Assembly: GCF_041886205.1 (NCBI RefSeq)
Contig: NZ_CP169029.1
Strand: one strand, 5' to 3'
Origin: Escherichia coli
Lineage (GTDB): Bacteria; Pseudomonadota; Gammaproteobacteria; Enterobacterales; Enterobacteriaceae
DNA length: 64,000 nucleotides
A program made the position numbers and the translations under genes. Under the pieces are notes generated by a model. The model was not told the origin of the DNA, did not search any database, and was given only the letters and a program-made list of their open reading frames with translations. Position 1 is the stretch's first letter; each line of letters opens with the position of its first letter. Below are positions 36,613-53,695 of this stretch, one piece after another.

Positions 36613-37007
36613 GCCCAACAATGGGGGGACGGAAGCTGTAAAAGTAAAACAATCTGCGATCTCAGAGTTATTGTGTGATTTTTATGTGAGCAGAAGATAT
36701 TCATCAGAAACGATTATGTAAATCATTTTATTTTGCCGACTGCCTGATTGTCGAAAGAAAAGAATACGCCCGGGTTTCCTGAATAGATTGACTTTTTTAT
36801 CCAACCACACTTCAGCGCACTGCGTTTAAAAAATGCCTCATTCTTATGCGGAATATCATCATTTCATCATGATGTCTTTGATGAGCGGTGAACACAATAC
36901 ACTTGCGCTGTCTCTTCAGGATGAATCCCCTGGTCTGGTGCCTGTGGGCTGATGTTGCAGCAAAGCTAAGGTCGCTTAAACGCTACTCAGTATTCACTTT
37001 TCAGAGG

Positions 37008-40000
37008 ATGAAATTTATGAACAGGACCAGTCCCTATTATTTTCGCCGCTCAGTACTTTCCTTATTGATATCTGCCCTGATATATGCTCCGCCCGGGATG
37101 GCGGCCTTTACTACTAATGTTATTGGTGTGGTAAATGATGAGACTGTAGATGGCAACCAACGAGTAGATGAACGAGGTACAACAAATAACACTCATATTA
37201 TCAACCATGGCCAGCAGAGTGTTTATGGCGGAGTATCTAATGGAAGTATTATTGAATCGGGTGGATATCAAGATGTTGGAAGGAATAACAATTATATGGG
37301 GCAGTCTAATAATACAACCATTAACGGAGGAAGACAGACAATTCATGACGGGGGCATTTCCACCGGTACGATAATCGACAGTGGCAATCAGGACGTTTAT
37401 ACAGGTGGTATCAGCAATGGAACGACAATTAAGGGTGGTAATTCACACATAAGTGGGGGGACTGCGAATGGAACAATCATTGATGGTGGCAGCCAACGAG
37501 TAACAACGCAGGGGCATGTTGACAGTACAACGATAAATAAGTCTGGCTCTCAGGACATCACGCAAGGAAGTCTGGCGACGAACACAATCATAAATGGTGG
37601 ACGACAGTATGTTGAACAGAGCACAGTAGGAACAACCACCATTAAAAATGGCGGTGAGCAAAGAGTATATGAAAGCCATGCGCTGGACACGACGATTGAA
37701 GGTGGAACTCAGTCTCTGAATAATAAGTCAACGGCAAAAAATACTCAGATCTATTCTGGTGGTACGCAAATTGTTGATAACACCAGCACCTCGGATGTTA
37801 TTGAAGTTTATTCCGGTGGCGTGCTTGATGTTAGTGGTGGTACGGCAACAAATGTTACCCAGCACGATGGTGCAATTTTAAAAACAAACACTAACGGTAC
37901 GACGGTGAACGGTACGAATAGTGAAGGTGCATTCTCCATCCACAATCACGTGGCAGACAATGTGTTGCTGGAAAACGGTGGTCATTTAGACATAAACGCA
38001 TATGGTTCGGCAAACAAGACTATTATCAAAGATAAAGGAACAATGTCAGTTTTAACCAATGCTAAAGCTGATGCGACCCGAATAGATAACGGCGGGGTAA
38101 TGGATGTTGCCGGAAACGCGACCAATACCATAATTAATGGTGGCACACAGAATATTAATAATTATGGCATAGCCACGGGAACCAATATCAACAGCGGAAC
38201 GCAAAATATCAAGAGCGGCGGGAAAGCTGACACGACAATTATATCCTCCGGGAGCCGGCAGGTTGTTGAGAAAGATGGTACGGCAACTGGCAGCAATATT
38301 AGCGCCGGAGGCTCGCTGATTGTCTATACCGGCGGTATTGCACATGGGGTTAACCAGGAGACGGGCAGTGCTTTAGTTGCCAACACGGGTGCAGGGACTG
38401 ATATCGAAGGATACAACAAGCTCTCTCACTTCACTATTACCGGAGGGGAGGCTAATTATGTTGTGCTGGAAAATACCGGCGAACTGACGGTAGTGGCTAA
38501 AACCTCGGCGAAAAATACTACCATTGATACTGGCGGTAAGCTGATTGTCCAGAAGGAGGCTAAAACAGATAGCACCAGACTTAATAATGGCGGCGTTCTG
38601 GAGGTTCAGGACGGTGGTGAGGCTAAGCATGTTGAGCAACAATCCGGCGGCGCATTAATTGCTTCCACGACCTCCGGAACACTTATCGAAGGAACCAACA
38701 GTTATGGTGATGCTTTCTACATCAGGAATTCAGAAGCTAAAAATGTAGTGCTGGAAAACGCTGGCTCATTAACAGTCGTCACTGGTTCCCGGGCAGTTGA
38801 TACGATTATTAATGCCAATGGCAAAATGGATGTTTATGGAAAAGATGTTGGCACTGTACTTAATAGTGCTGGCACCCAAACAATATATGCCAGTGCCACT
38901 TCTGATAAAGCAAATATCAAAGGTGGCAAGCAAACGGTATATGGTTTAGCCACTGAAGCAAATATCGAAAGTGGTGAACAAATTGTTGATGGTGGGTCAA
39001 CAGAGAAAACACACATCAATGGTGGCACGCAAATCGTTCAGAATTATGGTAAGGCAATCAATACCGATATCGTCTCTGGCCTACAACAAATTATGGCAAA
39101 CGGGACAGCGGAAGGTTCCATTATTAATGGGGGTTCACAGGTAGTTAATGAGGGCGGTCTGGCTGAAAACTCGGTGCTTAATGACGGCGGCACACTCGAT
39201 GTGCGGGAGAAAGGCAGCGCAACGGGGATACAGCAGAGTAGCCAGGGCGCTTTGGTTGCAACCACCAGGGCGACGCGGGTCACAGGAACACGCGCGGATG
39301 GCGTCGCGTTCAGCATCGAGCAGGGTGCGGCGAACAATATCCTGCTGGCAAATGGCGGCGTGTTAACCGTGGAGTCAGACACCTCTTCTGACAAAACACA
39401 GGTCAATATGGGCGGACGGGAGATCGTCAAAACAAAAGCCACTGCGACAGGCACGACGCTCACCGGCGGTGAACAAATTGTCGAGGGTGTGGCGAATGAG
39501 ACAACAATTAACGACGGCGGAATACAAACAGTTTCAGCTAACGGAGAGGCAATAAAAACAAAGATCAATGAAGGCGGTACGCTGACAGTCAACGATAATG
39601 GCAAAGCGACAGATATCGTCCAGAACAGCGGTGCCGCTCTCCAGACGAGCACGGCTAACGGTATTGAAATCAGCGGTACTCACCAGTACGGTACTTTTTC
39701 CATTTCCGGCAATTTAGCGACCAATATGTTGCTGGAAAATGGCGGTAATTTATTGGTATTAGCAGGTACCGAAGCTCGCGACTCCACGGTTGGCAAGGGT
39801 GGGGCAATGCAAAACCTGGGTCAGGACTCCGCCACAAAGGTTAACTCTGGCGGGCAATATACCCTTGGGCGGTCAAAAGATGAGTTTCAGGCTCTGGCCC
39901 GGGCAGAAGATCTCCAGGTCGCTGGCGGTACGGCAATCGTCTACGCAGGTACGCTGGCGGATGCATCGGTCAGTGGCGCGACAGGAAGCCTGTCGTTAAT

Positions 40001-41597
40001 GACGCCACGGGATAATGTTACGCCAGTTAAACTCGAAGGGGCGGTCCGGATTACCGATAGCGCGACATTGACTCTGGGAAATGGCGTCGATACCACGCTT
40101 GCCGACCTGACGGCTGCCAGCCGGGGCAGTGTCTGGCTTAACAGCAATAATTCCTGTGCAGGTACCAGCAACTGCGAATATAGAGTAAACAGTTTGCTAC
40201 TCAACGACGGTGATGTTTATTTGTCAGCACAAACAGCAGCGCCTGCCACAACTAACGGTATCTACAATACGCTGACAACCAATGAACTTTCCGGTAGCGG
40301 TAATTTCTACCTGCATACCAACGTTGCAGGCTCCCGGGGCGATCAACTGGTCGTCAACAACAACGCCACTGGTAATTTTAAAATCTTTGTTCAGGATACC
40401 GGCGTCAGCCCACAGTCTGACGACGCGATGACGCTGGTGAAAACAGGGGGAGGGGATGCTTCGTTTACGCTGGGCAATACCGGCGGTTTCGTTGATCTTG
40501 GGACCTATGAGTATGTCCTGAAAAGTGACGGCAACAGCAACTGGAACCTGACCAATGATGTCAAACCCAACCCGGACCCCATCCCAAATCCAAAGCCAGA
40601 CCCAAAACCCGATCCAAAGCCAGACCCAAATCCAAAACCAGACCCTACTCCCGATCCAACGCCGACACCCGTTCCGGAGAAACGCATTACGCCTTCTACG
40701 GCAGCCGTACTCAATATGGCAGCAACATTACCGTTGGTATTTGATGCTGAGCTAAACAGTATTCGCGAGCGGTTGAACATAATGAAAGCGAGTCCACACA
40801 ACAATAATGTCTGGGGGGCGACGTATAACACCCGTAATAATGTCACCACCGATGCGGGTGCCGGGTTTGAGCAGACGCTGACCGGAATGACAGTGGGGAT
40901 CGACAGCCGTAATGATATTCCTGAAGGAATTACCACGCTAGGCGCTTTTATGGGCTATTCCCATTCACATATCGGTTTTGATCGCGGAGGACATGGCAGT
41001 GTGGGCAGTTATTCTCTGGGCGGCTATGCCAGTTGGGAACATGAAAGTGGTTTCTATCTGGACGGTGTCGTGAAGCTGAACCGTTTTAAAAGTAACGTAG
41101 CAGGTAAAATGAGCAGCGGTGGAGCCGCCAATGGCAGTTACCACAGCAACGGGCTGGGCGGTCACATTGAAACCGGGATGCGATTTACCGATGGTAACTG
41201 GAACCTGACGCCGTATGCATCGTTAACGGGGTTCACCGCTGATAACCCCGAATATCATTTATCCAATGGCATGGAATCGAAATCAGTCGATACCCGCAGT
41301 ATATATCGTGAACTGGGTGCAACGCTGAGTTACAACATGCGTCTGGGGAACGGTATGGAAGTTGAGCCGTGGCTGAAGGCGGCTGTGCGCAAAGAATTTG
41401 TCGATGATAACCGGGTGAAGGTGAATAATGACGGTAATTTCGTCAATGATTTGTCGGGCAGACGTGGAATATACCAGGCAGGTATTAAAGCCTCATTCAG
41501 TAGTACGTTAAGCGGGCATCTCGGGGTGGGGTATAGCCATGGTGCCGGTGTGGAATCACCGTGGAACGCGGTGGCTGGTGTGAACTGGTCGTTCTGA
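37008..41597 (+). CDS. ypjA: AIDA-I-type autotransporter adhesin, YpjA-like
   Basis: Signal peptide (MKFMNRTSPYYFRRSVLSLLISALIYAPPGMAAF), long repetitive GG-x-Q/T beta-helix passenger, Pro-rich linker, C-terminal beta-barrel ending ...AGVNWSF; start trimmed from ORF 36888. Confidence 0.85.
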   Translation: MKFMNRTSPYYFRRSVLSLLISALIYAPPGMAAFTTNVIGVVNDETVDGNQRVDERGTTNNTHIINHGQQSVYGGVSNGSIIESGGYQDVGRNNNYMGQSNNTTINGGRQTIHDGGISTGTIIDSGNQDVYTGGISNGTTIKGGNSHISGGTANGTIIDGGSQRVTTQGHVDSTTINKSGSQDITQGSLATNTIINGGRQYVEQSTVGTTTIKNGGEQRVYESHALDTTIEGGTQSLNNKSTAKNTQIYSGGTQIVDNTSTSDVIEVYSGGVLDVSGGTATNVTQHDGAILKTNTNGTTVNGTNSEGAFSIHNHVADNVLLENGGHLDINAYGSANKTIIKDKGTMSVLTNAKADATRIDNGGVMDVAGNATNTIINGGTQNINNYGIATGTNINSGTQNIKSGGKADTTIISSGSRQVVEKDGTATGSNISAGGSLIVYTGGIAHGVNQETGSALVANTGAGTDIEGYNKLSHFTITGGEANYVVLENTGELTVVAKTSAKNTTIDTGGKLIVQKEAKTDSTRLNNGGVLEVQDGGEAKHVEQQSGGALIASTTSGTLIEGTNSYGDAFYIRNSEAKNVVLENAGSLTVVTGSRAVDTIINANGKMDVYGKDVGTVLNSAGTQTIYASATSDKANIKGGKQTVYGLATEANIESGEQIVDGGSTEKTHINGGTQIVQNYGKAINTDIVSGLQQIMANGTAEGSIINGGSQVVNEGGLAENSVLNDGGTLDVREKGSATGIQQSSQGALVATTRATRVTGTRADGVAFSIEQGAANNILLANGGVLTVESDTSSDKTQVNMGGREIVKTKATATGTTLTGGEQIVEGVANETTINDGGIQTVSANGEAIKTKINEGGTLTVNDNGKATDIVQNSGAALQTSTANGIEISGTHQYGTFSISGNLATNMLLENGGNLLVLAGTEARDSTVGKGGAMQNLGQDSATKVNSGGQYTLGRSKDEFQALARAEDLQVAGGTAIVYAGTLADASVSGATGSLSLMTPRDNVTPVKLEGAVRITDSATLTLGNGVDTTLADLTAASRGSVWLNSNNSCAGTSNCEYRVNSLLLNDGDVYLSAQTAAPATTNGIYNTLTTNELSGSGNFYLHTNVAGSRGDQLVVNNNATGNFKIFVQDTGVSPQSDDAMTLVKTGGGDASFTLGNTGGFVDLGTYEYVLKSDGNSNWNLTNDVKPNPDPIPNPKPDPKPDPKPDPNPKPDPTPDPTPTPVPEKRITPSTAAVLNMAATLPLVFDAELNSIRERLNIMKASPHNNNVWGATYNTRNNVTTDAGAGFEQTLTGMTVGIDSRNDIPEGITTLGAFMGYSHSHIGFDRGGHGSVGSYSLGGYASWEHESGFYLDGVVKLNRFKSNVAGKMSSGGAANGSYHSNGLGGHIETGMRFTDGNWNLTPYASLTGFTADNPEYHLSNGMESKSVDTRSIYRELGATLSYNMRLGNGMEVEPWLKAAVRKEFVDDNRVKVNNDGNFVNDLSGRRGIYQAGIKASFSSTLSGHLGVGYSHGAGVESPWNAVAGVNWSF
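40561..40672 (+). repeat. Tandem short repeats encoding the (P-D/N/K-P) linker inside ypjA
   Basis: cccaaatccaaagccagacccaaaacccgatccaaagccagacccaaatccaaaaccagaccc, encoding PNPDPIPNPKPDPKPDPKPDPNPKPDPTPDPTPTP. Confidence 0.7.
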
Positions 41598-41609: not shown

Positions 41610-41640
41610 AAGCCCACATCTGTGGGCTTTCATGTTACCA
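41610..41640 (+). terminator. Intrinsic terminator after ypjA
   Basis: Hairpin aaagcccacatctgtgggcttt immediately after the stop. Confidence 0.55.
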
Positions 41641-41825
41641 GGAGCCGCGGCTCTTTTGCGTATCCTGTTTTGTCTCCTCACCGTCTGGTCGGTGTCCTGC
41701 TGAGGCTGCTAACTTCCTGTTTTTGTTGGTGTTGTCCTTACACCGTCCAATCATGATTGGGCTGGCGGAGTCTGAATAACATTTGCAACATAATGTTTTT
41801 ATTGTTTATTTTCCAATTCAACTTT

Positions 41826-41854
41826 CATTGGTATACCTAAGCGTATACCAATGG
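41826..41854. repeat. Palindromic GGTATAC-containing repeat at the left end of the P4-like element
   Basis: cattggtatacctaagcgtataccaatgg; close copy of cgtatacctaaacgtataccaat at 53200-53222. Confidence 0.5.
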
Positions 41855-41932
41855 CGATTTGTTGCAATGATTCCTGTGGTTAAGCGAACTTGTTGTTGAA
41901 TAGCTCACATCAAGAAAAAAACTTTTTTTACG

Positions 41933-42034
41933 GAAAACTGTTCACACTGTTCACTCGCCATTATTTGTCTTTAATTTCAATGTGATATACGGTGAATAGT
42001 CCGTGAACAGTGAACACTTTACTGTTCACTTTCC
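41933..42034. promoter_or_regulatory. Cluster of TGTTCAC/GTGAACA octamer iterons downstream of the primase gene, P4 ori-like
   Basis: ctgttcacactgttcac ... ggtgaatagtccgtgaacagtgaacactttactgttcac; resembles P4 type I iterons bound by alpha. Confidence 0.5.
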
Positions 42035-42079
42035 GGGATTTCAGGTAAAAAAAGACCGGCTGATGCCGGTCCGGGTAGG

Positions 42080-44413
42080 TTATGTCGCGGTGGTTTCGTC
42101 GCACCGGGGCAGCCAGTCGGCGTTGCTTTCCTCCCTGAGCGCAAGGTTCGTCTGCATCCCCTGATTTGTTCGCCGCCTGGCGTAATTCAGCCCGTACTCT
42201 TTCAGCATCGATGACAGCCCTTTGCCGAACATGGTCAGGCTGAGGGTGTTCTTGTAGCCGTGCGCCTCCATGTAAACCAGATAGGCGTGATACAGGTACA
42301 GGCGCGGCTGTCGCGGGATGATATTCGCATTCCCCATGTACATACCGTCAGGCTCGGGCAGCGCCTCCAGATAGCCACAAAAATCGAATGTCGGGTCAGC
42401 GTCGCGCTTGATGCTGAGTGCCTCGTCGGAGTTCTGCTGCGACTGGAGCAGTGTGCGCGCGGTCATCGGGTCGCTGAACGTCTGCATAAGCTGACGCACG
42501 ATGACGGCCAGCTCGCGGGCAATTTTATCTTTCAGCTTCGGGTCACGCTCCTCCGGGGCAATCTGTTCCGGGAAGTGCATTATCACCCGGCGACGCGACA
42601 CGCCGCCGCTGCGGTCGGTGAAGCGCATCGGATTGTTGTTTACGGCCAGTATCACCGCCGGAATATGGGTGGAGTACGCATCGCGGTATTTCGGGTCAAC
42701 CGAGACCGCATCCCCGCCGGTGATGGCCTTGAGTCCTGCCCCGTCACCGCTCCATTTCTCCTGGTCAGGCAGACGTATCAGCGAGAAGCCAATCAGCGCC
42801 GCGCGCTCGCGGGGGGATTCCAGCGTTTCGATAGTCGCTGACGTGGCGTTATCTTCCCCGGCGAGCATGGTCGCTATTTCGGCCAGAATACTTTTCCCGC
42901 TGCCACCGGGACCGGTCACTTCGAGGAAGAGCTGCCAGTCGTAGCGGTTCGCCAGCACCATAAACAGCGCGGCGAGTATCACGTCACGTTTATCGGCACG
43001 CGAACCGGCGGCGCGGTCGAGCCAGCGCCAGAAATTCGGCGCGTGCGTCTCCAGCGTTTCCCCCTCCACCGGCGGGGTGAAATCCACGTCGCACAGGGTG
43101 CGCAGCCAGTGCGTTTTGCTGTGCGGGCTGAATATACCGGTACTGGTATCAAGCACGCCGTTGCGAAAGCCAATCAGCCGCCGTGGCGGGGCATCCTGCT
43201 GCGGAATAATCAGTTTCAGGGTGTCCACCACCGAGGCAATTTTCCCCGACGAAAACGGGGCGCGCAGACGCTGGAACAGCCCGGCCACGTCGCGCGCAAA
43301 GTCTGACGGCGGAATGATTTTCCATATACCGGCTTCATAGCGGGACAGGAGCTGCCCGTTCGCATCCACCGCCAGCGCTTCGCCGTAATGCTCATGCACC
43401 CGCATGGCTTTCTCACTGGTGCTCATGGCGGTAAATTCCGCCTCGCTCATGGTAGAGAAAGGGCTTTCAGCCGGTGGCCGGATGGCGTCATACATGGCTT
43501 TACGCGTGGCCTCCCCACCGTGCTGTGTATACGCATCATTCCAGTCACCGAACACCGGCGGCAGGGCGACCACGCCCTCACAGGACTCTGCGGCCGCAGA
43601 CGCTTTGGTCTGGCCGTCGCCGTTAAGGTCACGGTCGGCGGCAATGACAATCCGGCAGGCCGGGTATTTGTGACGGGCAAGGCTCGCCAGAGAAAGGAGG
43701 TTCACCGACGACAGCGCCACCATGACGGTTTCGCCGGTCAGGTGATGCACGGTGAGCGCGGTCGCGTAGCCCTCCGCTATCCACAGCCGTTTTCCCGCCT
43801 CTTTTTTCCCGTCGAGAATATGACATGTCCCTTTTACCTGCCCCCCTTTCAGGGTGCGCTTGAGACCGTCCGCGTTAATGAGCTGGACGTTAACCAGTGC
43901 GCCGCTATCGTCATACAGCGGGACAACCACATCCCCGGCACGGTACGTCACACCGCCGGTTTTGTGCATGGCCGTCAGTACCTGACATTCCCGGCCGGGA
44001 AAGCCCTTGCGGGTGAGGTAGGCGTTGCCGGTGGCCGGTTGGGTTTTCTCCATCAGTCTGGCGGCCAGCGCGGCCGCCGCTTTGCGGTCGGCCTCCGTTT
44101 CAGCGTCTGCGGCCGCAGTCACCGCCGGGGATACCGGAGGCAGGTTGCCGGTCACGGCGTTCACCTTCCCGGCCGCCTCTGACGGGGTCACGCCGAACAC
44201 TTTCTCAACCAGTTTCAGACCGTCCCCCGCGCCGCACTGGTTACAGAACCACGTCCCGCGTCCCTCCTTATCGTCAAAGCGAAAGCGGTCGGAGCCGCCA
44301 CACACCGGACAGGCCTGATGACGGTTTTTGATGACCGTTACCCCCAGCGCCGGGAGAATGCGCGGCCAGTGGCCGCACGCCTGTTTCACGGTGTCCGTTA
44401 CGTTCATTTTCAT
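42080..44413 (-). CDS. P4 alpha-type primase-helicase
   Basis: 777 aa; N-terminal zinc-binding primase region CPVCGGSDRFRFDDKEGRGTWFCNQCG; Walker A-like GPGGSGKS. Confidence 0.85.
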   Translation of the reverse strand: MKMNVTDTVKQACGHWPRILPALGVTVIKNRHQACPVCGGSDRFRFDDKEGRGTWFCNQCGAGDGLKLVEKVFGVTPSEAAGKVNAVTGNLPPVSPAVTAAADAETEADRKAAAALAARLMEKTQPATGNAYLTRKGFPGRECQVLTAMHKTGGVTYRAGDVVVPLYDDSGALVNVQLINADGLKRTLKGGQVKGTCHILDGKKEAGKRLWIAEGYATALTVHHLTGETVMVALSSVNLLSLASLARHKYPACRIVIAADRDLNGDGQTKASAAAESCEGVVALPPVFGDWNDAYTQHGGEATRKAMYDAIRPPAESPFSTMSEAEFTAMSTSEKAMRVHEHYGEALAVDANGQLLSRYEAGIWKIIPPSDFARDVAGLFQRLRAPFSSGKIASVVDTLKLIIPQQDAPPRRLIGFRNGVLDTSTGIFSPHSKTHWLRTLCDVDFTPPVEGETLETHAPNFWRWLDRAAGSRADKRDVILAALFMVLANRYDWQLFLEVTGPGGSGKSILAEIATMLAGEDNATSATIETLESPRERAALIGFSLIRLPDQEKWSGDGAGLKAITGGDAVSVDPKYRDAYSTHIPAVILAVNNNPMRFTDRSGGVSRRRVIMHFPEQIAPEERDPKLKDKIARELAVIVRQLMQTFSDPMTARTLLQSQQNSDEALSIKRDADPTFDFCGYLEALPEPDGMYMGNANIIPRQPRLYLYHAYLVYMEAHGYKNTLSLTMFGKGLSSMLKEYGLNYARRRTNQGMQTNLALREESNADWLPRCDETTAT

Positions 44414-44424
44414 GGTGTTCTCCC

Positions 44425-44745
44425 TCAGTGCAGCGCCGGTGCGGTGATATGACGGGCGCAGAGTTCATCCATCACGGCCAGCCCGAGAAAGGACAGCGAC
44501 GGCGCGGCCTTGAGTGGTCCGGCTTCCATTAAATCTTCGAGCAGGGCACAGGCAATCTGACGGCCTTTTTCCTCGCCATGCTGGCGCAGGTAGAAGCCCT
44601 CCAGCTCGGTCGCAATGGCGCTTTCCAGCGTACTGAGCGTGAGCTGCGGGTAGCGGTGCTGACGTTCGCACAGGGTCAGCCATGCACAGGCCACGGCGCG
44701 GCGATAGAGCGCGGCGCGTAAGACGGGCGTTAATGGCTTTTTCAT
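44425..44745 (-). CDS. Hypothetical protein, 106 aa (same size and position as P4 orf106)
   Basis: ORF immediately upstream of the primase, start overlapping the upstream ORF stop. Confidence 0.45.
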
Positions 44746-45047
44746 ACGTTGCGCTCCCCGGCCAGCCAGCGCTGATTGCAGCGTTCGACCACACCTTCAA
44801 GCCGGGCGGTCATGAGGTAAATCACCGAGGTGAGCTGTAGCTGCTGCGCCGGATTGTGGCGCAAAGAGGTGCAGTCCTGCACCTGCATCAGTTCGCCGAC
44901 GAGCTGGCCGACGTTGCGAAGATGTTCGAGGCATTCGAGGTCTGCCCGGCTGATGGTGGGCTGGTTTATATTCTGCGACCGTTCCGTACTGTTAACAGGC
45001 ATTATTTCGTCTCCTGAGGACGTGCGTATCCCTGCGCAGATACGCAC
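44742..45047 (-). CDS. Hypothetical P4-like small protein, 101 aa
   Basis: Translationally coupled to neighbouring ORFs in the primase-upstream cluster. Confidence 0.45.
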
Positions 45048-45073
45048 ATTTTATTTTGGGGTGTCGTTTTTAA

Positions 45074-45523
45074 TTACAGATAACGGCGGTAGCTGTTATC
45101 CGGTTTTATTTCCGTTTCCAGCCTGAAATTATTCCGCCATTTATGCGCCACCGGCGCCGGGCGTTTAACCGGGGGAATATCATCAGGATAGTTATCGATA
45201 TTCCGCGCCCGGTATTGCTGTAATGCCGGGTCGGCCGCTATTTCGCGTAATACGGCGTGGCGGTTTTCAGGGTTGCGCTTAAATACATCGGGATGCTCAC
45301 AGGTAAAGTCCCGCAAAAAACGACTGAGCGGAATTTCTGCCATACGGCCACCGGCAATAATACGAATGAGGATGGTGTAGGTGCGCCGGTAAGGGTTCCA
45401 GACCAGCCCCGGACAGCGGTACGGCATATCCCACGGAATACCGTCGGCCAGCACGCCCGACACCACCACATCAGGAAATCCTGTACAGCGATATGTTTCG
45501 CCCGGCTGAGGGAAATCAAACAT
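45074..45523 (-). CDS. Hypothetical P4-like protein, about 149 aa
   Basis: ORF 45074-45565 trimmed to ATG at 45523, which overlaps the stop of the upstream small gene. Confidence 0.4.
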   Translation of the reverse strand: MFDFPQPGETYRCTGFPDVVVSGVLADGIPWDMPYRCPGLVWNPYRRTYTILIRIIAGGRMAEIPLSRFLRDFTCEHPDVFKRNPENRHAVLREIAADPALQQYRARNIDNYPDDIPPVKRPAPVAHKWRNNFRLETEIKPDNSYRRYL

Positions 45524-45815
45524 GGTGCTCCCCTCCGTTTCCCGACGTCGTGGCGAGAAAGTCACGGCACAGGCCTTTGGCTTTCAGCTCTTCCAGGACG
45601 TAGCTGACGTCCTCATGGATATAACTAAAAATCTGCGGCAGGTATAGCTGGTGTAAACCGTTCAGCTCACGGCGCAGCAAATCTCCACCGATGAACTGCG
45701 AGACGGCGCTGGCGCGATTGAGTTTATGGTACGCCTCAATGCTGAGGTGTTCCTGCATGGGGTTAAGGTCATCACGACGCGCTGAGATGGTCTGAGGGGT
45801 GTTTTTATTATGCAT
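45516..45815 (-). CDS. Hypothetical small protein, 99 aa
   Basis: ATG at 45815 preceded by a GGAGG RBS; the N-terminal part of the longer listed ORF is low-complexity and probably not translated. Confidence 0.4.
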
Positions 45816-46403
45816 GTGACACCTCCACAACCGGCAGACGGGCGGCAAGGGAAAGCACGTATTCCCGGACAAGGGTGCGGCGGGCGGCCAGCTCGTCACC
45901 GGCCACGGTGCGGAGCATACAGATACGGGGTTTACGGTCTGCACGACGGACGGCGGCAAACACAAAGACAAACTGAGGGTGTGACGGGGTGAGGGTCGTA
46001 GCCATAAGGCAACCTCCTTCGAGTAGCAAATTATTGCTATCGCCGGAGTTCTCACGCTCAGTGGCGATAGCCCAGACGGGGGTGAGAATACCGGCCTCGA
46101 AGAATACCGGCCAGCCCGAGGGCTGCCCCGCCTGAGCTACCATTGACATGACAGCATGATATGCGATTGCGGACAGGAGACACAAAGTGACGTCTGCACG
46201 ACGATCCGCACACCACGCCATTATCTGGCGCTCTGTGGCGTTAGTTGCGACACAAAAAAAGACGCATGGCGCGTCTGGTGTCGCCTTCGAGTTACTCGGG
46301 TTCTCACGCCCGGTTACCGATTTTGCGGCAACAGCAAAACTGTACCAGGAAACACACAACGGATGCAAGCCAGAAAAAGGGGCTTTGTGAAATCGGCTCT
46401 GAT

Positions 46404-46622
46404 TCATGCGTCGTATTTCCGGTTGCGGTGCGCGACACGTTCTTCCATCCATGCCGTGATTTCAGACTGTAGCCAGGCGACATTTTTACCCCCGAGGGAA
46501 ACCTGCGCCGGGAAAGCGTTACGGGCGATTAAATCGTAGAGCGTGGAGCGGGACAGGCCGCACTGATGAATGACTTCCGGGAGACGTAAAAAACGTTCCT
46601 GAGTCGGGGCTGAAACCGGCAT
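46404..46622 (-). CDS. alpA: AlpA-family transcriptional regulator of the P4-like element
   Basis: [49 protein letters not shown] matches the AlpA HTH family; start trimmed to MPVSAP. Confidence 0.7.
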
Positions 46623-46944
46623 CGGGTGCGCGGCAGTGGGGGACGGTGGTGCTGATGAAACTGTGTGCATAACGCTACCTCGTTAATATCCGCAGAGATC
46701 CGGACGTATCCGTCCGGTATCAGGTAGCGCTCTATTTTGTGAATATTTTTCTTCAATGCAACAGAGGCATGTTGTGTCGTGGAGCAGTTTTGTCTGTTAT
46801 TTAAGCAGCGACCTGAAAATATGAAAAATAATTGGCACATGACGCGCTGAGACGTTCATAAATCACAGTCAATTGATATCGCCTATCAATAGATAAAAAT
46901 ATAATTATTAAAACAATGACTCTCTAAAAGGAGCTTGCCGAAAC

Positions 46945-47050
46945 CAGTGAACAGTAGTGAACAGTTGGTGAACACTTTTCTCTCAACTGTTCACTCTTTA
47001 ATTTATTGTTTTATTTATATTTTTATACTGAGTGAACAGTAGTGAATAGT
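46945..47050. promoter_or_regulatory. Second TGAACAGT iteron cluster, P4 crr-like
   Basis: cagtgaacagtagtgaacagttggtgaacac ... caactgttcac ... gagtgaacagtagtgaatagt, about 5 kb from the ori-like cluster. Confidence 0.5.
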
Positions 47051-47218
47051 TATATGTAAAAAAACAAATAGAGTGAGGGGTTTTCCTGCGACCTTTCTCT
47101 GGCCAGCCGGGTTTTTAAGTCCTGTTTGTGCCATGTCTGCGACAACGGCAATGAATCGAGTTGTTGTCTGAGGGACGGCAGAATGGCGTCAGGTTGAAAA
47201 CACAGAGAGAACCCGACG

Positions 47219-48022
47219 ATGAAACCAGATTTGTTTACCGCAGTAATGAAAACCATCGGCAGCACGCAGGATGAGAACATCCGCACGGCCATTGACAGCG
47301 CACTGGATACCCTTAACGAGAAAGCAAACCAGAACGCAGAGGCCACGATAAATAATGCGCTTGAGGCATTCAGCAAGGCCAAATCCGCGCACACGGAAAA
47401 TATGCTGAAACTGAATGATATTGATGCGGCCATTACCCGCAGTGAGAAAGAGCGTCAGAACGCCCTGAATGAAAGTGCCGAAGCGGAACAGAACTGGCGT
47501 ACCCGTTTTCGCGAACTGCGCGGCATGATGACCCCGGAACTGAAAGCCGAACACAGTCAGCGAGTGGCCGGTCGGGAGCTGGCGGAGGAATTCACCGCCC
47601 TGATTGATGAGCTCAACGATGATAAAGCCAGTACCATGCTGGCCGCCTGTACATCAGGAGATAAGTACGTCGGCACGCATTTTACGGTGTTCTCTGCCTA
47701 CTCCCGGAATGAGTGGGCGACCGTGATGAAAGACATCCCTCCCTCACTGGTGCGCGCATTTGCGTTACGTCTGCGTGAACTCGAAATGAAAGGAGAAGAA
47801 CACCCTCACAACGTTCTCATTCAGGAACTGGGGGAGAATGTACTGGCGCAAAGCAGGTACTACACATTCAACATGGCGCAGGAGCCGGTAATTTCAAAAA
47901 TTGGGCTTCACCGTCCGGCACTCACCGGCGTGGATATGAAACTCTATAAAAGCCCGGTTCTCAGAATGGCGCGGGCTAAAGAGCTGGCACAGAAGAAAAA
48001 ATCGCGGGGGGTTAAGCCATGA
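47219..48022 (+). CDS. Possible Sid-like capsid size determination protein
   Basis: 267-aa alpha-helical protein immediately upstream of the Delta and Psu homologs, in the P4 sid-delta-psu order. Confidence 0.4.
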   Translation: MKPDLFTAVMKTIGSTQDENIRTAIDSALDTLNEKANQNAEATINNALEAFSKAKSAHTENMLKLNDIDAAITRSEKERQNALNESAEAEQNWRTRFRELRGMMTPELKAEHSQRVAGRELAEEFTALIDELNDDKASTMLAACTSGDKYVGTHFTVFSAYSRNEWATVMKDIPPSLVRAFALRLRELEMKGEEHPHNVLIQELGENVLAQSRYYTFNMAQEPVISKIGLHRPALTGVDMKLYKSPVLRMARAKELAQKKKSRGVKP

Positions 48023-48261
48023 TGCGCTGTCCGTACTGCAAACAGGCTGCCCATGTCCGTACCAGCCGTTACCTGTCGGATAACGTCAAACAGAGCTACC
48101 TCCAGTGCGTGAATGTCTTTTGCTCCGCAACCTTTCGCACCACCGAGTCTATCGACGAGGTAATACGGCCACCGGCAGAAGAAAAGCCCGAACCGCCGCA
48201 GACAGTACCAGAAACACCGCCCCGAATTCTGGACTGCGCCCGGTCATCGCTGCGCCACTGA
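48019..48261 (+). CDS. Ogr/Delta-family zinc-finger late transcription activator
   Basis: CPYCKQAAHVRTSRYLSDNVKQSYLQCVNVFCSATF matches the Ogr/Delta C-x2-C...C-x4-C pattern. Confidence 0.8.
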   Translation: MMRCPYCKQAAHVRTSRYLSDNVKQSYLQCVNVFCSATFRTTESIDEVIRPPAEEKPEPPQTVPETPPRILDCARSSLRH

Positions 48262-48277
48262 TTCAGGAGAAAAGACA

Positions 48278-48853
48278 ATGGCACGAGCACTACTGGAACA
48301 GGCCTTTGAAACCTGTCAGAAGAATAAATCGGACTGGGTGAGCAGCAAGTCAGCACTGGCGCGGGCTGAAATGGCGCTGAAAGAGCTGGAGCTGACCTGC
48401 ACCCGTTATGAACCGGAGGCCGCACAGGCGCTGCGGGATGATATTGACCTGAAAAAATGGGCGGTAAATCAGTCGGCCGGGCAGTACATCCGGTCACATG
48501 AGGCCGTGCAGCGTATCAGTATCCGGCGTCAGCTCCACGCCTTTATGCAGGTAAGCGGCGACGCGCTGGCCGCCGCACTGGCACCGGAATTAATGCATCT
48601 CTGCGAACAACCTGACATTGTCAGAGAACGGGCTCTCGACCGGGCGGCCGCCAGTGTTCGCGAAGCGCTGTCCGTTTATGTAACCCGCGGAGGAAATATT
48701 GATTACGCAGAGGATGATCGCGACATTCTGACAACCATCGGTTTCCGGCCTGACAGAGCATCGAGAGACGACAACCGGGCAAAATATACGCCTGAACAGA
48801 GTCAGATTTTCATGCGCCGACAGGCCGCGCAGACCCGCAAAAAATCCGCATAA
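48278..48853 (+). CDS. Psu-like polarity suppression protein
   Basis: 191 aa; remembered Psu-like motifs (KKWAVNQSAGQYIRSHEAVQ, AAALAPELM, DILTTIGFRPD); position after delta. Confidence 0.6.
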   Translation: MARALLEQAFETCQKNKSDWVSSKSALARAEMALKELELTCTRYEPEAAQALRDDIDLKKWAVNQSAGQYIRSHEAVQRISIRRQLHAFMQVSGDALAAALAPELMHLCEQPDIVRERALDRAAASVREALSVYVTRGGNIDYAEDDRDILTTIGFRPDRASRDDNRAKYTPEQSQIFMRRQAAQTRKKSA

Positions 48854-49113
48854 AACGCCCCGAAAATACCCGTCTTTTTAATAAAAATAGCCATGCATGC
48901 CTACGCTGCATGGCTTTGCATGCAAAAACCTGAATTTTCCACACCCCGCCGCACCAGCACTGGCGCGGCCTGAGTCCCTTCATGCGCCTGCATTAAAAGT
49001 GCCCCACGAAGCGGGCAGGCGTGGCGGGGAGAGCATTGCGCGCCAAGCGATATATAATTAATTAATGAAGAAGGATAGAATTAACCATATAGCCATAAAA
49101 AAGGATGCGGGTG

Positions 49114-50685
49114 ATGAAGGCGAGTGATATGCAGCACTTATGTAATATAGCCAGAGAGCTTGTTTCTGATGGCAAGTTTGAAAAGGCGTATGAGTTCACG
49201 TTGCAGATTTATAAATCCCTTGACGAAAATATCTTTGGGGATAATTACTATATACTTCTTTATAATATGGCTGCGAATTTTGTTGATATAGGAGGAATGC
49301 AACCGAATAAAGAGGCTTCTCTGCTAGGCTATAACTTAATGAATGAGCACTTTGACTCTTTTTCTAAAATTATGGATGAATCTACGCTCTATTATAACCT
49401 AGCAAACGCAAAGTCAAACTTGGTTGAAAAAGGCAGTGTTTTTAAACAAACGTTTACAACAATTGAGGATATGGTGGATGTAAAAAATTTATACTGGAAG
49501 GCATTTAAATTACTCGGTGATGATAATACTATATATAGCAAAGAACTGAAGGTCAATTTAGCAAACTCACTCAAGCAACAGTTTAGAGTTGTAGAGTCTA
49601 TTTCATATTATGATGATGTTATTTCCTCGGGGGAAGATATACCGCAAGCATGGATTAACAGGTCTGAAGCCTTAATGCTATTGCTGCAACTCTCTGGTTC
49701 TCATACTATAAAGCATATAAGAGAGATTAGACTTGGATATATGAAAGCAATTGAATCAACAGAGATGCCACCGCCATGGAAACCACACTTTCAATCACGT
49801 GCTGAAAAACTCACGGAAGATATAATCGAAATGTCGGGAAAACCATTTTTTGAAAAAGAAGATGAGCTTGATGAAAAACAGACGCTAGAAGAATATAGCA
49901 AACTTAATAATTATCAAAAATTCGTTTTAGATAACCACTTTGTTCTTTCTGAGCATGGGGTGTATTGTCCTTGCGTAGTTGGGGCTAAAGATAACCTAAC
50001 AATATTACCAACACATAATGATGTTTCTGGTGATTTTATTATTCCCATGGAAATGGTTTTGAATAGGCTAAAGTCTGAATATGCTTTGGCAAGGCGCTCG
50101 TTATTCGAGTATGAGTACATGGAGGAAGTTGATGATGTGGCCTGTTATTCAGAGTTGTATAACGATGAAGTTTTAAATGTTGGTGTTGAGAAGATAAGAA
50201 ATGCATTTCGTATATGTTTTGGTGTGTTAGATAAAATAGCTATTGCAATATGTGAGTTATACGATGTTTATCCAGCCAATAAAATAGTGTACTTTGAAAA
50301 TTTTTGGCAATTAAACCAAAATGGGCGAAGGGATAAGTTTGAAGAAATAAAAACTCCAGCTTTACTGGCTTTATATAGTCTAGCTACTGACCTAAATGAT
50401 AGAAAGAATGGTGAATTATCCTTTTATAAGGATTGGAGAAATGATTTGGAACATAATATAGTGATCGTTCATAAAGATTGCGAGCCTTTAGATATATATA
50501 ATTCCTACGGTTACATGAAGAATATTAGGTTGATATCGGAGTCTGATTTTACTAGACATTTTAAAGTGTTATTGCAAATAGTACGCTCAGCAATTTTTCT
50601 TTTTACCTTTATGGTAAGAGAAGAGGGGGGTAAAAGTAACAAGGATTCATTTTTGATATCAAACTCACTAGATTGGAAAATATGA
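49114..50685 (+). CDS. Hotspot cargo: TPR-like N-terminus plus C-terminal HEPN-like domain, candidate abortive-infection protein
   Basis: AT-rich 523-aa ORF; TPR-like helical repeats; R-x4-H motif in WRNDLEHNIV; start trimmed from ORF 49105 for RBS spacing. Confidence 0.55.
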   Translation: MKASDMQHLCNIARELVSDGKFEKAYEFTLQIYKSLDENIFGDNYYILLYNMAANFVDIGGMQPNKEASLLGYNLMNEHFDSFSKIMDESTLYYNLANAKSNLVEKGSVFKQTFTTIEDMVDVKNLYWKAFKLLGDDNTIYSKELKVNLANSLKQQFRVVESISYYDDVISSGEDIPQAWINRSEALMLLLQLSGSHTIKHIREIRLGYMKAIESTEMPPPWKPHFQSRAEKLTEDIIEMSGKPFFEKEDELDEKQTLEEYSKLNNYQKFVLDNHFVLSEHGVYCPCVVGAKDNLTILPTHNDVSGDFIIPMEMVLNRLKSEYALARRSLFEYEYMEEVDDVACYSELYNDEVLNVGVEKIRNAFRICFGVLDKIAIAICELYDVYPANKIVYFENFWQLNQNGRRDKFEEIKTPALLALYSLATDLNDRKNGELSFYKDWRNDLEHNIVIVHKDCEPLDIYNSYGYMKNIRLISESDFTRHFKVLLQIVRSAIFLFTFMVREEGGKSNKDSFLISNSLDWKI

Positions 50686-50814
50686 AAACATTACGTTGCA
50701 AGTATATCTTGTATTCGTTCAACTTTGACCTGACACACCTCTGGCACAAAGCCCCAATCTCATAGGCGGTTCTATGCCAGGGGCTGAAAGTCTGTCTCTG
50801 GTAACATACACTTA

Positions 50815-51801
50815 TTATGTTATATTGAGGAAATCTGGGATATTAGCTGGTTCAAGGTCAAAAATATATTTAATGATTCCGGCTTTTAGGTTCTCCTCAA
50901 TTCCTTTCCTGAAATCTAGAATACTTGAGATTGTTGCATCATGTTGTAAATGATGTCGCCAGTGAACATCTTTTTCTCGACTATGAAAAGATAACAATCG
51001 GGTTAGAGCCATATGTGCGAACATTCCTGATTGTTCATCGATTGTATAATGGGCAACCACGTGGGAATCAGAATATGATTCTTTCGTAGAAAGATCCCAA
51101 GAATGAAATAATTGCTGAGCAATTGGTGATAGATCCCTTATTTGTTCATTTCTTCCGTTAGTGAAGTAAACATCATCTATGACGGTATGCCAGTTTTCTT
51201 GTGTCCCTTCATCTGTTTCAATGGTTTCAATAATATTTTCTTTCTTGAAACTTATATGAACACCTGAATTAACTTGTGGAGTGTAGGTGAAGTCACCTAA
51301 AACTTTACTCATTAAGCTATTACGCATTGCATCATTGAAATTAAGATTGAAATTTGTTTTTGCCTTTGTAAATAAATCTAGATCTACCAGGCTCCAAATT
51401 CCATGTCTTCTCCAGGCAATTAAAACGGGCAGCCCTAATAATTGGCCGTAAGCTCTTAATCTGGACACGTAATCTGGACGAAAAGACAAAACATTTCCCA
51501 TGTAAGATTTAACTTCAATCAAAACAGTAGTCTTGCCTGCGCCACGCACATTAAAATTTGCTAGTAAATCTGGAACCTGAAAAGTCTTGTTAGAAGTAGT
51601 TGGATACTGCTGTTGATCCAATTTATGGACTAGGTTGCATTGACCTAGCCAACCACAGATAATCGAAAACTCGTCTTCTAACGGGAGGCCAATATTAAGT
51701 CTATTTACACGTTCAGCGATAGCCTTAGCGTCAGCCTCCCAACCCAGTTGCTCTAGAGATTCATGTATAAGTCTCTCTAAATCTGTCGGCTTATCTTTCA
51801 A
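50815..51801 (-). CDS. Hotspot cargo: putative PD-(D/E)xK-fold nuclease-like protein (328 aa)
   Basis: AT-rich ORF convergent with the HEPN-like gene; N-terminal motif FQVPDLL...VLIEVKS. Confidence 0.55.
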   Translation of the reverse strand: MKDKPTDLERLIHESLEQLGWEADAKAIAERVNRLNIGLPLEDEFSIICGWLGQCNLVHKLDQQQYPTTSNKTFQVPDLLANFNVRGAGKTTVLIEVKSYMGNVLSFRPDYVSRLRAYGQLLGLPVLIAWRRHGIWSLVDLDLFTKAKTNFNLNFNDAMRNSLMSKVLGDFTYTPQVNSGVHISFKKENIIETIETDEGTQENWHTVIDDVYFTNGRNEQIRDLSPIAQQLFHSWDLSTKESYSDSHVVAHYTIDEQSGMFAHMALTRLLSFHSREKDVHWRHHLQHDATISSILDFRKGIEENLKAGIIKYIFDLEPANIPDFLNIT

Positions 51802-51960
51802 GGTAGCTCCCTATAGGTTTAGTTCGAACTCAATAAGTTATATGTCATTAACATATTACAAAGTTATGCCATTATCGCTTAAAGCCGATCATCATGTAAG
51901 AATACATTATATCCGTGGCAACGGTTAGTGCTAATTCACAGATATACTGAGCAAAAATTT

Positions 51961-53148
51961 TTAATGATTTACTTTATCTCCCCACCAATCCATCAACTCA
52001 ACTCTTTGAAGTAAATAAGTTGAACGGTTGTAAGCTTTTCGAACTTCATTTTTGTCTGAGTGTGCTAATGCTGCTTCAATAACATCAGAATTAAATCCGG
52101 CTTCATTGAGTGCAGTACTTGCGATGGACCGTAACCCGTGAGCAACTAATTTCCCACCATAACCAATACGCTTAAGTGCGGCATTAGCAGTCTGACTATT
52201 CATTGGTTGCTTAGGGTTATTTCTGCTGGGAAAAACATGTTCACGGTGAGCGCTGATTGGTTTCATCACTTCCAGAATATCTAACGCCTGAGGAGATAGT
52301 GGGACTATGTGCTCACGCTTAGCTTTCATCCGTTCGGCAGGAATTGTCCAGAGCTTTGCATCAAGATCGATCTCTGCCCACCGGGTACTGGAAGCCTCAG
52401 AAGGGCGCACAAGGGTCAGGAGTTGCCATTCGATTAGACAGCGAGTCGGAACAGACAGATTTGACATGACTAAAGAACGCATCAGCTTCGGCAATTCTTC
52501 TGGCCGCAACGTCGGCATGTTTTGCTTTTTGGGCTTCTCAAAGGCCATGCCAACACCGGATGCTGGATTGGCATCAATCAGACCAGTGTTTACGGCATAA
52601 ATCATGATTTCGTTAATGCGCTGCACCAGTCGACGTACAGTCTCAAGCGCCCCACGTGCTTTTATTGGCTCAAGGGCTTCAACCAAAGTTCGGGCTTTGA
52701 TTTGCTGAACGGGGATCTCACCGATGGCAGGGAATACATCTTTCTCCAGTGAACGCCAAATGTCTTTTGCGTAATCAGGGGTAACGCTTTTGCTTTTGAG
52801 ATGGAACCAGTTAGCGGCGACCGTTGAAAAAATACTGTCCAGAGCGATTTGCTGCTGTTCCTCTGCAACTTCGGCCTGAATTTGCGGGTCAATTCCGTTG
52901 GCTAACAAGGCAAGGTAATCCGCTCTTAACCCTCGGGCGTCAGCAAGTGAGAGGGCGGGGAAAGCACCTAGCCCCATCATTGTCCGCTGTTTTGTCGCCG
53001 GACGTTGATAACGGAAACGCCAGAGCTTTTTCCCGCTGGTTTTCACTATCAGGAAAAGGCCATCGCCATCATGCAGCGTTAGATCCTTCTCTAACGCTTT
53101 AGCGCGCAGAACTTCGGTGTTGGTCAGGGGGCGTGTTGTCCGTGCCAC
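51961..53148 (-). CDS. intA: P4-type tyrosine integrase, IntA (CP4-57)-like
   Basis: MARTTRPLTNTEVLRAKALEKDLTLHDGDGLFLIVKTSGKKLWRFRYQRP... resembles the IntA N-terminus; located immediately 3' of ssrA. Confidence 0.88.
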   Translation of the reverse strand: MARTTRPLTNTEVLRAKALEKDLTLHDGDGLFLIVKTSGKKLWRFRYQRPATKQRTMMGLGAFPALSLADARGLRADYLALLANGIDPQIQAEVAEEQQQIALDSIFSTVAANWFHLKSKSVTPDYAKDIWRSLEKDVFPAIGEIPVQQIKARTLVEALEPIKARGALETVRRLVQRINEIMIYAVNTGLIDANPASGVGMAFEKPKKQNMPTLRPEELPKLMRSLVMSNLSVPTRCLIEWQLLTLVRPSEASSTRWAEIDLDAKLWTIPAERMKAKREHIVPLSPQALDILEVMKPISAHREHVFPSRNNPKQPMNSQTANAALKRIGYGGKLVAHGLRSIASTALNEAGFNSDVIEAALAHSDKNEVRKAYNRSTYLLQRVELMDWWGDKVNH

Positions 53149-53166
53149 TGTGGCCGCTCCTTCATG

Positions 53167-53226
53167 AATTGGTATACGCTTTTAGGTATACATCCTACCG
53201 TATACCTAAACGTATACCAATAATCA
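53167..53226. repeat. GGTATAC-rich repeats between the integrase start and ssrA, probable integrase binding or attachment region
   Basis: aattggtatacgcttttaggtatacatcctaccgtatacctaaacgtataccaataatc; matches the repeat at 41826-41854. Confidence 0.5.
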
Positions 53227-53332
53227 CCGGATTTAGCCGGATGTTCTCGGACAACTACAGACACAAAAAAGCCCGCAGAGCTTGTGCTATACGGGCTTTC
53301 TGTACTTCACCGGACGTATCCGGATCATCATT

Positions 53333-53695
53333 TGGTGGAGCTGGCGGGAGTTGAACCCGCGTCCGAAATTCCTACGTCCTCGGTACTACATGCTTAGTCA
53401 GTCTTTACATTCGCTTGCCAGCTGCGGACGGACACGCCACTAACAAACTAGCCTGATTAAGTTTTAACGCTTCAACCCCAGGCAGGGCTTCCACGCGATC
53501 TCTTTTGGGTTTGACCTCTCTTGATCCCCGTCCTAAGAGCGGAGGCTAGGGAGAGAGGGCTCTAAGCAGGTTATTAAGCTGCTAAAGCGTAGTTTTCGTC
53601 GTTTGCGACTATTTTTTGCGGCTTTTTACGAGGCCAACCGCCCCTCGGCATGCACCTTGGGTTTCGCAAATCCCGTCGAATCCAGAATCAGCCCC
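53333..53695 (-). ncRNA. ssrA: tmRNA (SsrA)
   Basis: Reverse complement reads GGGGCTGATTCTGGATTCGACGGGATTTGCGAAACCC ... GGTTCAACTCCCGCCAGCTCCACCA, matching E. coli ssrA over its length. Confidence 0.95.

Follow-up and report, generated by a model that had tools for sequence, protein, structure and literature searches.

The satellite phage P4 reportedly integrates into leuX, a tRNA-Leu gene (Pierson & Kahn, 1987). In the GenBank records of this phage (X51522 / NC_001609), six 12-nucleotide (nt) “attP arm sequence repeats” are annotated at its attachment site (attP): an inverted unit over the start of the integrase gene int, a tandem pair adjoining it, a second tandem pair on the crr side, and a sixth copy inside int itself. 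The annotated core is 20 bp long and sits in the 3′ end of the tRNA. Arm-type repeats of this kind have been annotated at P4-family attP sites for decades, and it is against this background that a 64,000-nt stretch of Escherichia coli DNA is described here (contig NZ_CP169029.1 of assembly GCF_041886205.1; “the window” always means this whole stretch). Positions 41769-53347 of it (11,579 bp) are occupied by a complete P4-like satellite that has entered the 3′ end of ssrA, the gene for tmRNA, and that has clusters of GTATACC-type repeats close to both of its ends. With a probability of about 0.85, these clusters would be the arm-type attP sites of the satellite's integrase (Int), split between the two prophage ends by integration into ssrA. 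This reading is favored because Int has an arm-DNA-binding domain, because the repeats follow the geometry of P4, because their spacing is fixed in relatives, and because the repeat word co-varies with the N-terminal domain of Int and not with the Vis excisionase. The first-pass annotation, made from the letters of the sequence, had proposed that the repeats were likely integrase binding sites, a proposal which these four comparisons support indirectly but strongly. In themselves, such repeats would be nothing unusual for an integrase family that is already known; the novelty lies in the repeat word TWGGTATAC of the ssrA-specific Int subfamily, together with a natural variant in which that word changes in concert.

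Several other systems resemble this locus in part. CP4-57 of E. coli K-12 (IntA/SlpA, AlpA, psaA) is integrated at the same site, between the same flanks of the chromosome. Its distal core (psaA) is likewise degenerate, its proximal arm is homologous and bears a terminator, 12-bp tandem repeat pairs stand at homologous places on both arms, and its integrase IntA is 62% identical to that of the window. It differs in its repeat word (GGGCC/GGTCC) and in a proximal arm that is 20 bp longer, and it is a 22-kb element rather than a P4-type satellite, without alpha, sid or psu. CP4So of Shewanella oneidensis, too, is a P4-like prophage that combines a P4-type integrase with an AlpA excisionase and occupies the 3′ end of ssrA, although it measures 36 kb, belongs to another host genus and has arm-type sites that are undescribed. 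Its imperfect distal att site lacks the U of the G·U pair, and the tmRNA that remains once the prophage has excised is one base short (Zeng et al., 2016, PMC5148205). More distant is the lambda integrase, whose arm-type sites (P1, P2, P′1-3) are likewise non-core repeats lying on both attP arms and read by an N-terminal domain; there, however, the N-domain family (Arm-DNA-bind_3 in the window) as well as the number and layout of the sites are different, and there is no sequence relationship. As summarised in PMC2951348, lambda-type recombination is assisted by a recombination directionality factor and by integration host factor (IHF). Finally, the attL site of the E. coli prophage KplE1 (IntS/TorI) also has integrase arm-type sites over the integrase promoter, and this overlap mediates negative autoregulation (Panis et al., 2010, PMC2951348). 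KplE1 has an unrelated integrase, argW as its target, and another site layout.

The ends of the window element were set by means of its empty site. A chimeric query joining the ypjA flank directly to ssrA was searched in 5,426 complete E. coli genomes and was matched end to end in 2,528 of them. Since the site is thus empty in about half of the complete genomes, the element ends can be fixed at the nucleotide level, and this was done by aligning the empty site of LHM10-1 (locus L005) with both element junctions. At the proximal junction, native ssrA continues to its 3′ end (TGGTGGAGCTGGCGG..., 53333-53347) and the sequences diverge beyond. At the distal junction, the native downstream flank (...CCAATCATGATT) is kept and is then followed by GG----GCTGGCGG-AGTCTGAATAAC, so that, of the 15 terminal nt of ssrA, 11 are retained. 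The distal core of strain AF40 (L010) is intact (GATTGGTGGAGCTGGCGG|AGTTTGAATAA), which identifies the 15-bp identity block as the last 15 nt of ssrA. Insertion into ssrA is therefore seen from three sides: the 3′ end of an intact ssrA as proximal core, a copy of that core at the distal end, and an empty site in related genomes. The element also has the core set of a P4-like satellite (alpha primase-helicase, sid-like gene, delta, psu, int, Vis and a cos-like site) in ~11.6 kb, the length of P4 being 11,624 bp.

These junctions settle several points of the first-pass annotation. It had the repeats delimit an element of about 11.5 kb; the size was nearly right, but the ends themselves are formed by the core, and the repeats, which lie 62 bp (left) and 111 bp (right) inside them, merely flag where they are. 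The ssrA 3′-end-like stretch that it had pointed out (gctggcggagtctgaa) is indeed present at 41761-41776, and its degenerate left core is equivalent to the annotated 14-bp pseudogene psaA of K-12: psaA lacks 1 nt of the core, and the window copy, with three further bases missing, lacks 4. It had also named a finding that would refute it, namely that related genomes show the repeats to be ordinary chromosomal sequence. The opposite is true: both clusters are absent from the empty-site genomes and are therefore element DNA. The same holds for everything from the ssrA 3′ end to int, terminator included, the terminator region being homologous in CP4-57 and in the relatives. It may be added that the terminator of ssrA, like the first ~70 nt past the mature tmRNA (53264-53332), comes here from the element and not from the chromosome.

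At the left end stands a 23-nt block, GGTATACCTAAGCGTATACCAAT (41830-41852), whose second copy at 53199-53221 differs by a single mismatch. Searched as a pattern, the 23-mer CGTATACCTAARCGTATACCAAT matches the window at these two places only, exactly on the right and with one mismatch on the left, and it was matched in none of 100 shuffles, for a chance expectation of zero. Repeat clusters had thus been correctly located at both ends, although the left copy starts with G and not with C as first written. The heptamer GGTATAC is found nine times in the window, with seven of the nine inside the two clusters; the shuffles averaged 3.6, and 3 of the 100 reached at least nine. The left cluster (41826-41853) can be parsed either as CATTGGTATAC-CTAAGC-GTATACCAATG, with inverted arms of 11 nt, or as two 12-nt tandem units, L1 (TGGTATACCTAA, 41829-41840) and L2 (GCGTATACCAAT, 41841-41852). 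The right cluster (53168-53221, in full ATTGGTATACGcttTTAGGTATACAtcctaCCGTATACCTAAACGTATACCAAT) is made of four half-sites, with a spacing of 14 bp between R1 and R2 and of 12 bp between R3 and R4. GTATAC is palindromic, so unit orientation was read from the flanks (TTGG or TAGG on one side); read in this way, L1 and L2 form a 12-bp tandem pair oriented as R3 and R4.

How does this layout compare with that of P4? When heptamer offsets are counted from the first base of the RNA gene's 3′ end, they fall at -161, -133, -121, +76 and +88 in P4, at -162, -148, -133, -121, +77 and +89 both in the window and in a circular relative (L121, see below), and at -183, -153, -141, +78 and +90 in CP4-57. In position, orientation and 12-bp tandem spacing, the arm pairs of the window thus match the annotated repeats of P4 within 1 nt, despite an Int identity of 36% and different target genes. 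The order int, arm repeats, core, arm repeats, crr and alpha is the same in both, as are the 12-bp tandem pairs on both arms and the inverted unit or units beside the start of int, the P4 inverted repeat at -161 being equivalent in position to R1/R2. The two integrases also have three Pfam domains in common, and that of the window carries the arm-DNA-binding domain (PF13356, Arm-DNA-bind_3) at residues 8-92 (E = 4e-22). The differences lie in the target (tRNA-Leu leuX in P4, ssrA here), in one extra inverted unit (R2), in an identity block of 15 bp as against the annotated 20 bp, and in the repeat word itself, which is TTGGGGGCA in P4, TWGGTATAC in the window and TTGGGCC/TTGGTCC in CP4-57. The words differ, but the arm-repeat architecture does not.

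Detection of the excised circle by PCR had been recommended at first pass as a check, and it has a computational equivalent, found not in the window copy but in a relative. IMG/VR contig L121 (IMGVR_UViG_2600255186_000010), 10,182 bp long and belonging to the bin of an isolate genome, is the circularly permuted sequence of a relative (87-89% identical): within alpha, it opens at the base aligned to 44286 of the window and closes at the one aligned to 44284. Its attP is joined and runs through R1-R4, the terminator, AAGTGGTGGAGCTGGCGG|AGTCTGAATAAC and then CATTGGTATACCTAAGCGTATACCAATGG. This junction is the one predicted from the two ends of the window element (…CATCATTTGGTGG[A]GCTGGCGGAGTCTGAATAAC…), and in this unintegrated attP repeats unlike the core stand on both sides of it. 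The contig suggests that an episomal or excised form is present in the source isolate. When plasmid and phage collections were searched with the reconstructed attP, they gave partial int-proximal matches only, and no further joined attP.

R1-R4 start 20 nt ahead of the int start codon, directly against the ribosome-binding site of the gene. They could be operators only, controlling the transcription of int through Int or some other repressor and playing no part in the recombination complex. P4 itself offers a precedent, since its Int reportedly represses int by direct DNA binding upstream (Piazzolla, 2006, as cited in PMC2951348). A purely regulatory role is nevertheless improbable, for a matching tandem pair lies 11.4 kb away at the other end of the prophage, far from any int promoter, and in the circle this distal pair comes to occupy the P4 arm position +77/+89 across the core, where an operator has nothing to do. 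Operator and arm-site functions are not exclusive, however, and from the position of R1-R4 so close to the int start codon, Int bound there would probably repress its own gene as well, by analogy with P4.

The repeats are also conserved in a manner that follows their layout. The int-to-ssrA interval (53149-53332) matches in 424 of the 5,426 complete genomes. In an alignment of the window with seven fetched relatives (8 loci), identity along the distal arm is 97% in the core block, 62% in the spacer, 90% in the repeat pair and 49% in the next 50 nt, with zero indels between core and repeats; along the proximal arm it is 96% in R1, 94% in the R3/R4 pair, 79% in R2 and about 63% in the gaps between units. 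An exact-pattern scan of IMG/VR yielded 114 more loci. A distance of 133 nt separates the proximal pair from the end of ssrA in 52 of 62 loci, and one of 70 nt separates the distal pair from GCTGGCGG in 53 of 55; this fixed spacing extends to hosts with a different ssrA end (…GCTGGGGGG…). The ~50-bp spacer at 41780-41828 is very different even between elements that are otherwise 92-98% identical (the window and L001), while its length is constant and a TTCAAC-like block is retained. It may reflect mosaic exchange, or else a bend site fixed in length but free in sequence; compared by eye with the IHF consensus, the TTCAAC block gave an unconvincing match.

Does the repeat word follow the integrase? 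In two relatives (L007 and L008), GTATACC is replaced by GTGTACC in all units of the two ends, and the Int of L007 is only 68% identical to that of the window in its arm domain, against 90-91% in the remainder. To judge by eye, some GTATACC-type integrases have N-domains about as divergent as that of L007. As these keep GTATACC, the change would go with particular substitutions (T4I, T11N, V13I, A18P, L19R, L23F/V) and not with general drift. The repeat word thus changes along with the integrase, and does so at every copy together, within a limited number of independent lineages, and the GTATACC/GTGTACC pair offers a natural specificity swap for studying how a P4-type arm-binding domain reads DNA. 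The same comparison bears on the idea that the repeats are sites for the Vis/AlpA excisionase instead of Int. The element does encode a Vis homologue and, according to PMC7498355, the usual targets of directionality factors are direct repeats spaced by about one turn of the helix. Yet here the units lie on both arms, and they do not co-vary with Vis: in L009-L012, Vis is almost identical to that of P4 while the repeats read GTATACC and not TGCCCCC, and L001 and L007 have near-identical Vis proteins with GTATACC and GTGTACC, respectively. Excisionase sites are hence a poorer explanation still than operators.

The left repeat had been described at first pass as a palindrome. It is one in the window, and 41825-41854, with its 12-bp stem, was picked up as terminator-like by a simple scan, so it might be imagined as a hairpin that insulates the element from ypjA read-through, the likeness of the right end being then a duplicated structural motif. 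This is very unlikely. The palindromic extension (CATTGG...) is restricted to the lineage of the window and L001, whereas L009-L012 keep GTGCGTATACCTAATCGTATACCAATGG, a tandem pair without matching outer arms, so that no stem is conserved. The stem moreover has only four G-C pairs and a weak T tail, and ypjA has a hairpin of its own at about 41620-41640. The conserved feature is the 12-bp tandem pair, and the palindrome of the window is incidental to it.

Equally hard to sustain is the view that the repeats are replication iterons for the alpha primase-helicase, extending crr or ori. The left pair does lie about 80 bp from the crr-like TGTTCAC repeats, but the “type 1” repeats annotated as alpha-binding in P4 are TGTTCAC-like and are separately present here, the GTATACC word differs between elements with similar alpha and crr, and the second cluster is beside int and not at ori (46.9-47.1 kb). 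As for chance or ordinary chromosomal sequence, GTATAC is a short palindrome and its heptamer count is moderately above the shuffle mean, but the zero expectation of the 23-mer match, the absence of the clusters from about 2,500 empty-site genomes and the fixed offsets kept in more than 50 independent loci leave this explanation almost no weight.

If the repeats are arm-type sites, a coherent picture of recombination can be proposed. The free circle would present, in order, int, the inverted units R1 and R2, the tandem units R3 and R4 with their 12-bp period, 111 bp including the terminator, the 15-bp core, a 61-bp A/T-rich spacer, the tandem units L1 and L2 (again with a 12-bp period), crr and alpha. 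The N-terminal arm-binding domain of Int would bind the TWGGTATAC units while its C-terminal domains would bind and cut the core, and bending of the DNA over the fixed-length spacers would bring arm and core together in an intasome. IHF would probably contribute, by analogy with CP4-57, the excision of which is reportedly IHF-dependent (Kirby et al., 1994). The Vis/AlpA protein would set the directionality for excision.

A few points weigh against this interpretation. The case for this particular repeat word is comparative, and the co-variation amounts essentially to one GTGTACC lineage (L007, L008, L035 and L116) plus the contrasts with P4 and CP4-57. R2, the least conserved unit and degenerate in the GTGTACC lineage, is possibly no functional site. 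A scan of R1-R4 and of the left end for a sigma-70-like int promoter found none, so that autoregulation is proposed by analogy. Lastly, the distal core of the window copy is shortened, and its sites may be relics of an element that no longer excises; the circular relative L121 and a possible excision scar in strain WB61 (see below) bear on its competence indirectly. The analysis is nonetheless of practical use. For a widespread family of P4-like satellites it supplies a predicted attP and ends that are exact to the nucleotide (41769-53347), and the repeat word, with its fixed offsets, would allow such elements and their tandem arrays to be delimited automatically.

The distal core raises a question of its own. 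Charging of tmRNA with alanine is determined by its G3·U pair. Among 78 distal sites that were classified, 42 lack exactly the + strand A that encodes the U of this pair, in 33 the deletion is larger or GCTGGCGG is directly adjoined by unrelated sequence, and 3 are intact (L010, L100 and the circular L121). Cores without the U occur in many flank contexts, including the internal junctions of tandem arrays (L035, L062, L065 and L116), where the flank is the proximal arm of another element. Two simple placements of the crossover, confined either to GCTGGCGG or to TGGTGG, each conflict with part of these data. Heterology of 1 nt in the overlap, combined with selection for the daughter with a functional ssrA, would explain the distal-core pattern. 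It can thus be suggested, tentatively and with the odds rather against it, that a 1-nt heterology is native to attP and falls within the region of strand exchange, that only one daughter receives a functional ssrA, that excision leaves a tmRNA-null scar in part of the progeny, and that the tmRNA of the host consequently depends on the element. If true, this dependence would be a built-in retention device, and the window copy, with its three further missing bases, might be a step towards a locked-in element.

WB61 (L006, NZ_CP020025.1) has an empty site in which the ssrA 3′ end (495-505) lacks 5 nt (GATTG-----GCTGGCGGG), and its annotated ssrA measures 359 nt instead of 363. This end matches exactly the allele seen in the distal cores of L001, L007 and L012, and the site looks like a natural excision scar damaging the tmRNA. 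Such sites are rare: among evenly spaced entries taken from 5,429 records, WB61 alone was 100% identical.

The features of the locus are collected in Table 1. The element-side block next to the distal core resembles the T-loop region of tmRNA, the crr-like repeats are distinct from the GTATACC repeats, and the element also encodes DUF5375/ORF106. The sid-like open reading frame (ORF) gave no match in a Pfam search and was assigned by its position and by the annotation of relatives.

Table 1. Coordinates of the P4-like satellite, its attachment sites and its flanks in the 64,000-nt window.
Feature	Position	Strand	Basis
ypjA, autotransporter adhesin, chromosomal flank distal to the element	36888-41597	+	Pfam AIDA, Pertactin, Autotransporter; annotated ypjA in E. 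coli relatives
Distal att core remnant, TGG----GCTGGCGG	41758-41768	-	Alignment with empty sites, K-12 and proximal junction
Element-side core-proximal block, AGTCTGAATAA	41769-41779		Kept in all relatives; 97% column identity in 8 loci; in contiguous attP of L121
A/T-rich spacer, distal core to L1	41780-41828		Sequence variable, length invariant
L1+L2, putative distal arm-type pair	41829-41852	-	Two 12-nt tandem units
crr-like region, TGTTCAC/GTGAACA repeats (P4 “ori type 1”)	41930-42035		Sequence, repeats D3 and I6, P4 crr annotation
alpha primase-helicase	42080-44413	-	Pfam Zn_Ribbon_Prim, Toprim_3, D5_N, Pox_D5; ~79% DNA identity to P4 alpha
Vis/AlpA-type excisionase (recombination directionality factor)	46404-46670	-	Pfam Phage_AlpA; 64% identical to P4 Vis/ORF88
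sid-like, delta (Ogr/Delta zinc finger), psu	47219-48853	+	Pfam Ogr_Delta and Psu; gene order as in P4 and relatives
cos-like site, GGCGTGGCGGGGAGAGCAT	49018-49036	+	3 mismatches to P4 left end GGCGAGGCGGGGAAAGCAC, 0 chance matches expected; just after psu as in P4
Variable cargo: HEPN_LA2681 protein 49105-50685 (+), 328-aa ORF 50815-51801 (-)	49105-51801		Pfam domain search
Tyrosine integrase (int)	51961-53148	-	Pfam Arm-DNA-bind_3, Phage_int_M, Phage_integrase
R1, ATTGGTATACG	53168-53178	+	Putative proximal arm-type site, inverted relative to R3/R4
R2, TTAGGTATACA	53182-53192	+	Putative proximal arm-type site, inverted relative to R3/R4
R3, CCGTATACCTAA	53198-53209	-	12-nt tandem unit with R4
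R4, ACGTATACCAAT	53210-53221	-	12-nt tandem unit with R3
Intrinsic terminator downstream of ssrA	53264-53299	-	Terminator scan; in relatives and CP4-57, absent from empty sites
Proximal att core, last 15 nt of ssrA, TGGTGGAGCTGGCGG on + strand	53333-53347	-	Identity block common to empty site, proximal junction, distal junction of L010 and attP of L121
ssrA (tmRNA), tag peptide ANDENYALAA	53333-53695	-	ARAGORN

Satellites of this family carry variable, probably defensive, cargo beside int. In the window this segment has a GC content of 35.7%, compared with 55.8% for the remainder of the element, and it consists of a 526-residue protein with a HEPN_LA2681 domain and a convergent ORF for 328 residues whose only match, to an Hjc-like nuclease (NCBIfam), is below threshold. 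A comparison of the cargo proteins with PADLOC gave no match, and megablast found the cargo in none of the 5,426 complete E. coli genomes and in none of the 114 fetched P4-like loci. In relatives the same slot holds SIR2+ATPase, AAA+DUF4435 and similar pairs, and by this position the two genes are a candidate uncharacterised defence pair.

Other loci record further events at the same site. L008 (10284-16991) is a decayed element with an internal stop in int and a truncated alpha, in which both repeat clusters are retained; in L009 (17248-34174), a lambdoid prophage lies between the P4-like element and ssrA; and in L011 (1-5601), a second integrase island is found distal to the P4-like element. 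Together, these three loci are a sign of tandem traffic at the ssrA site.

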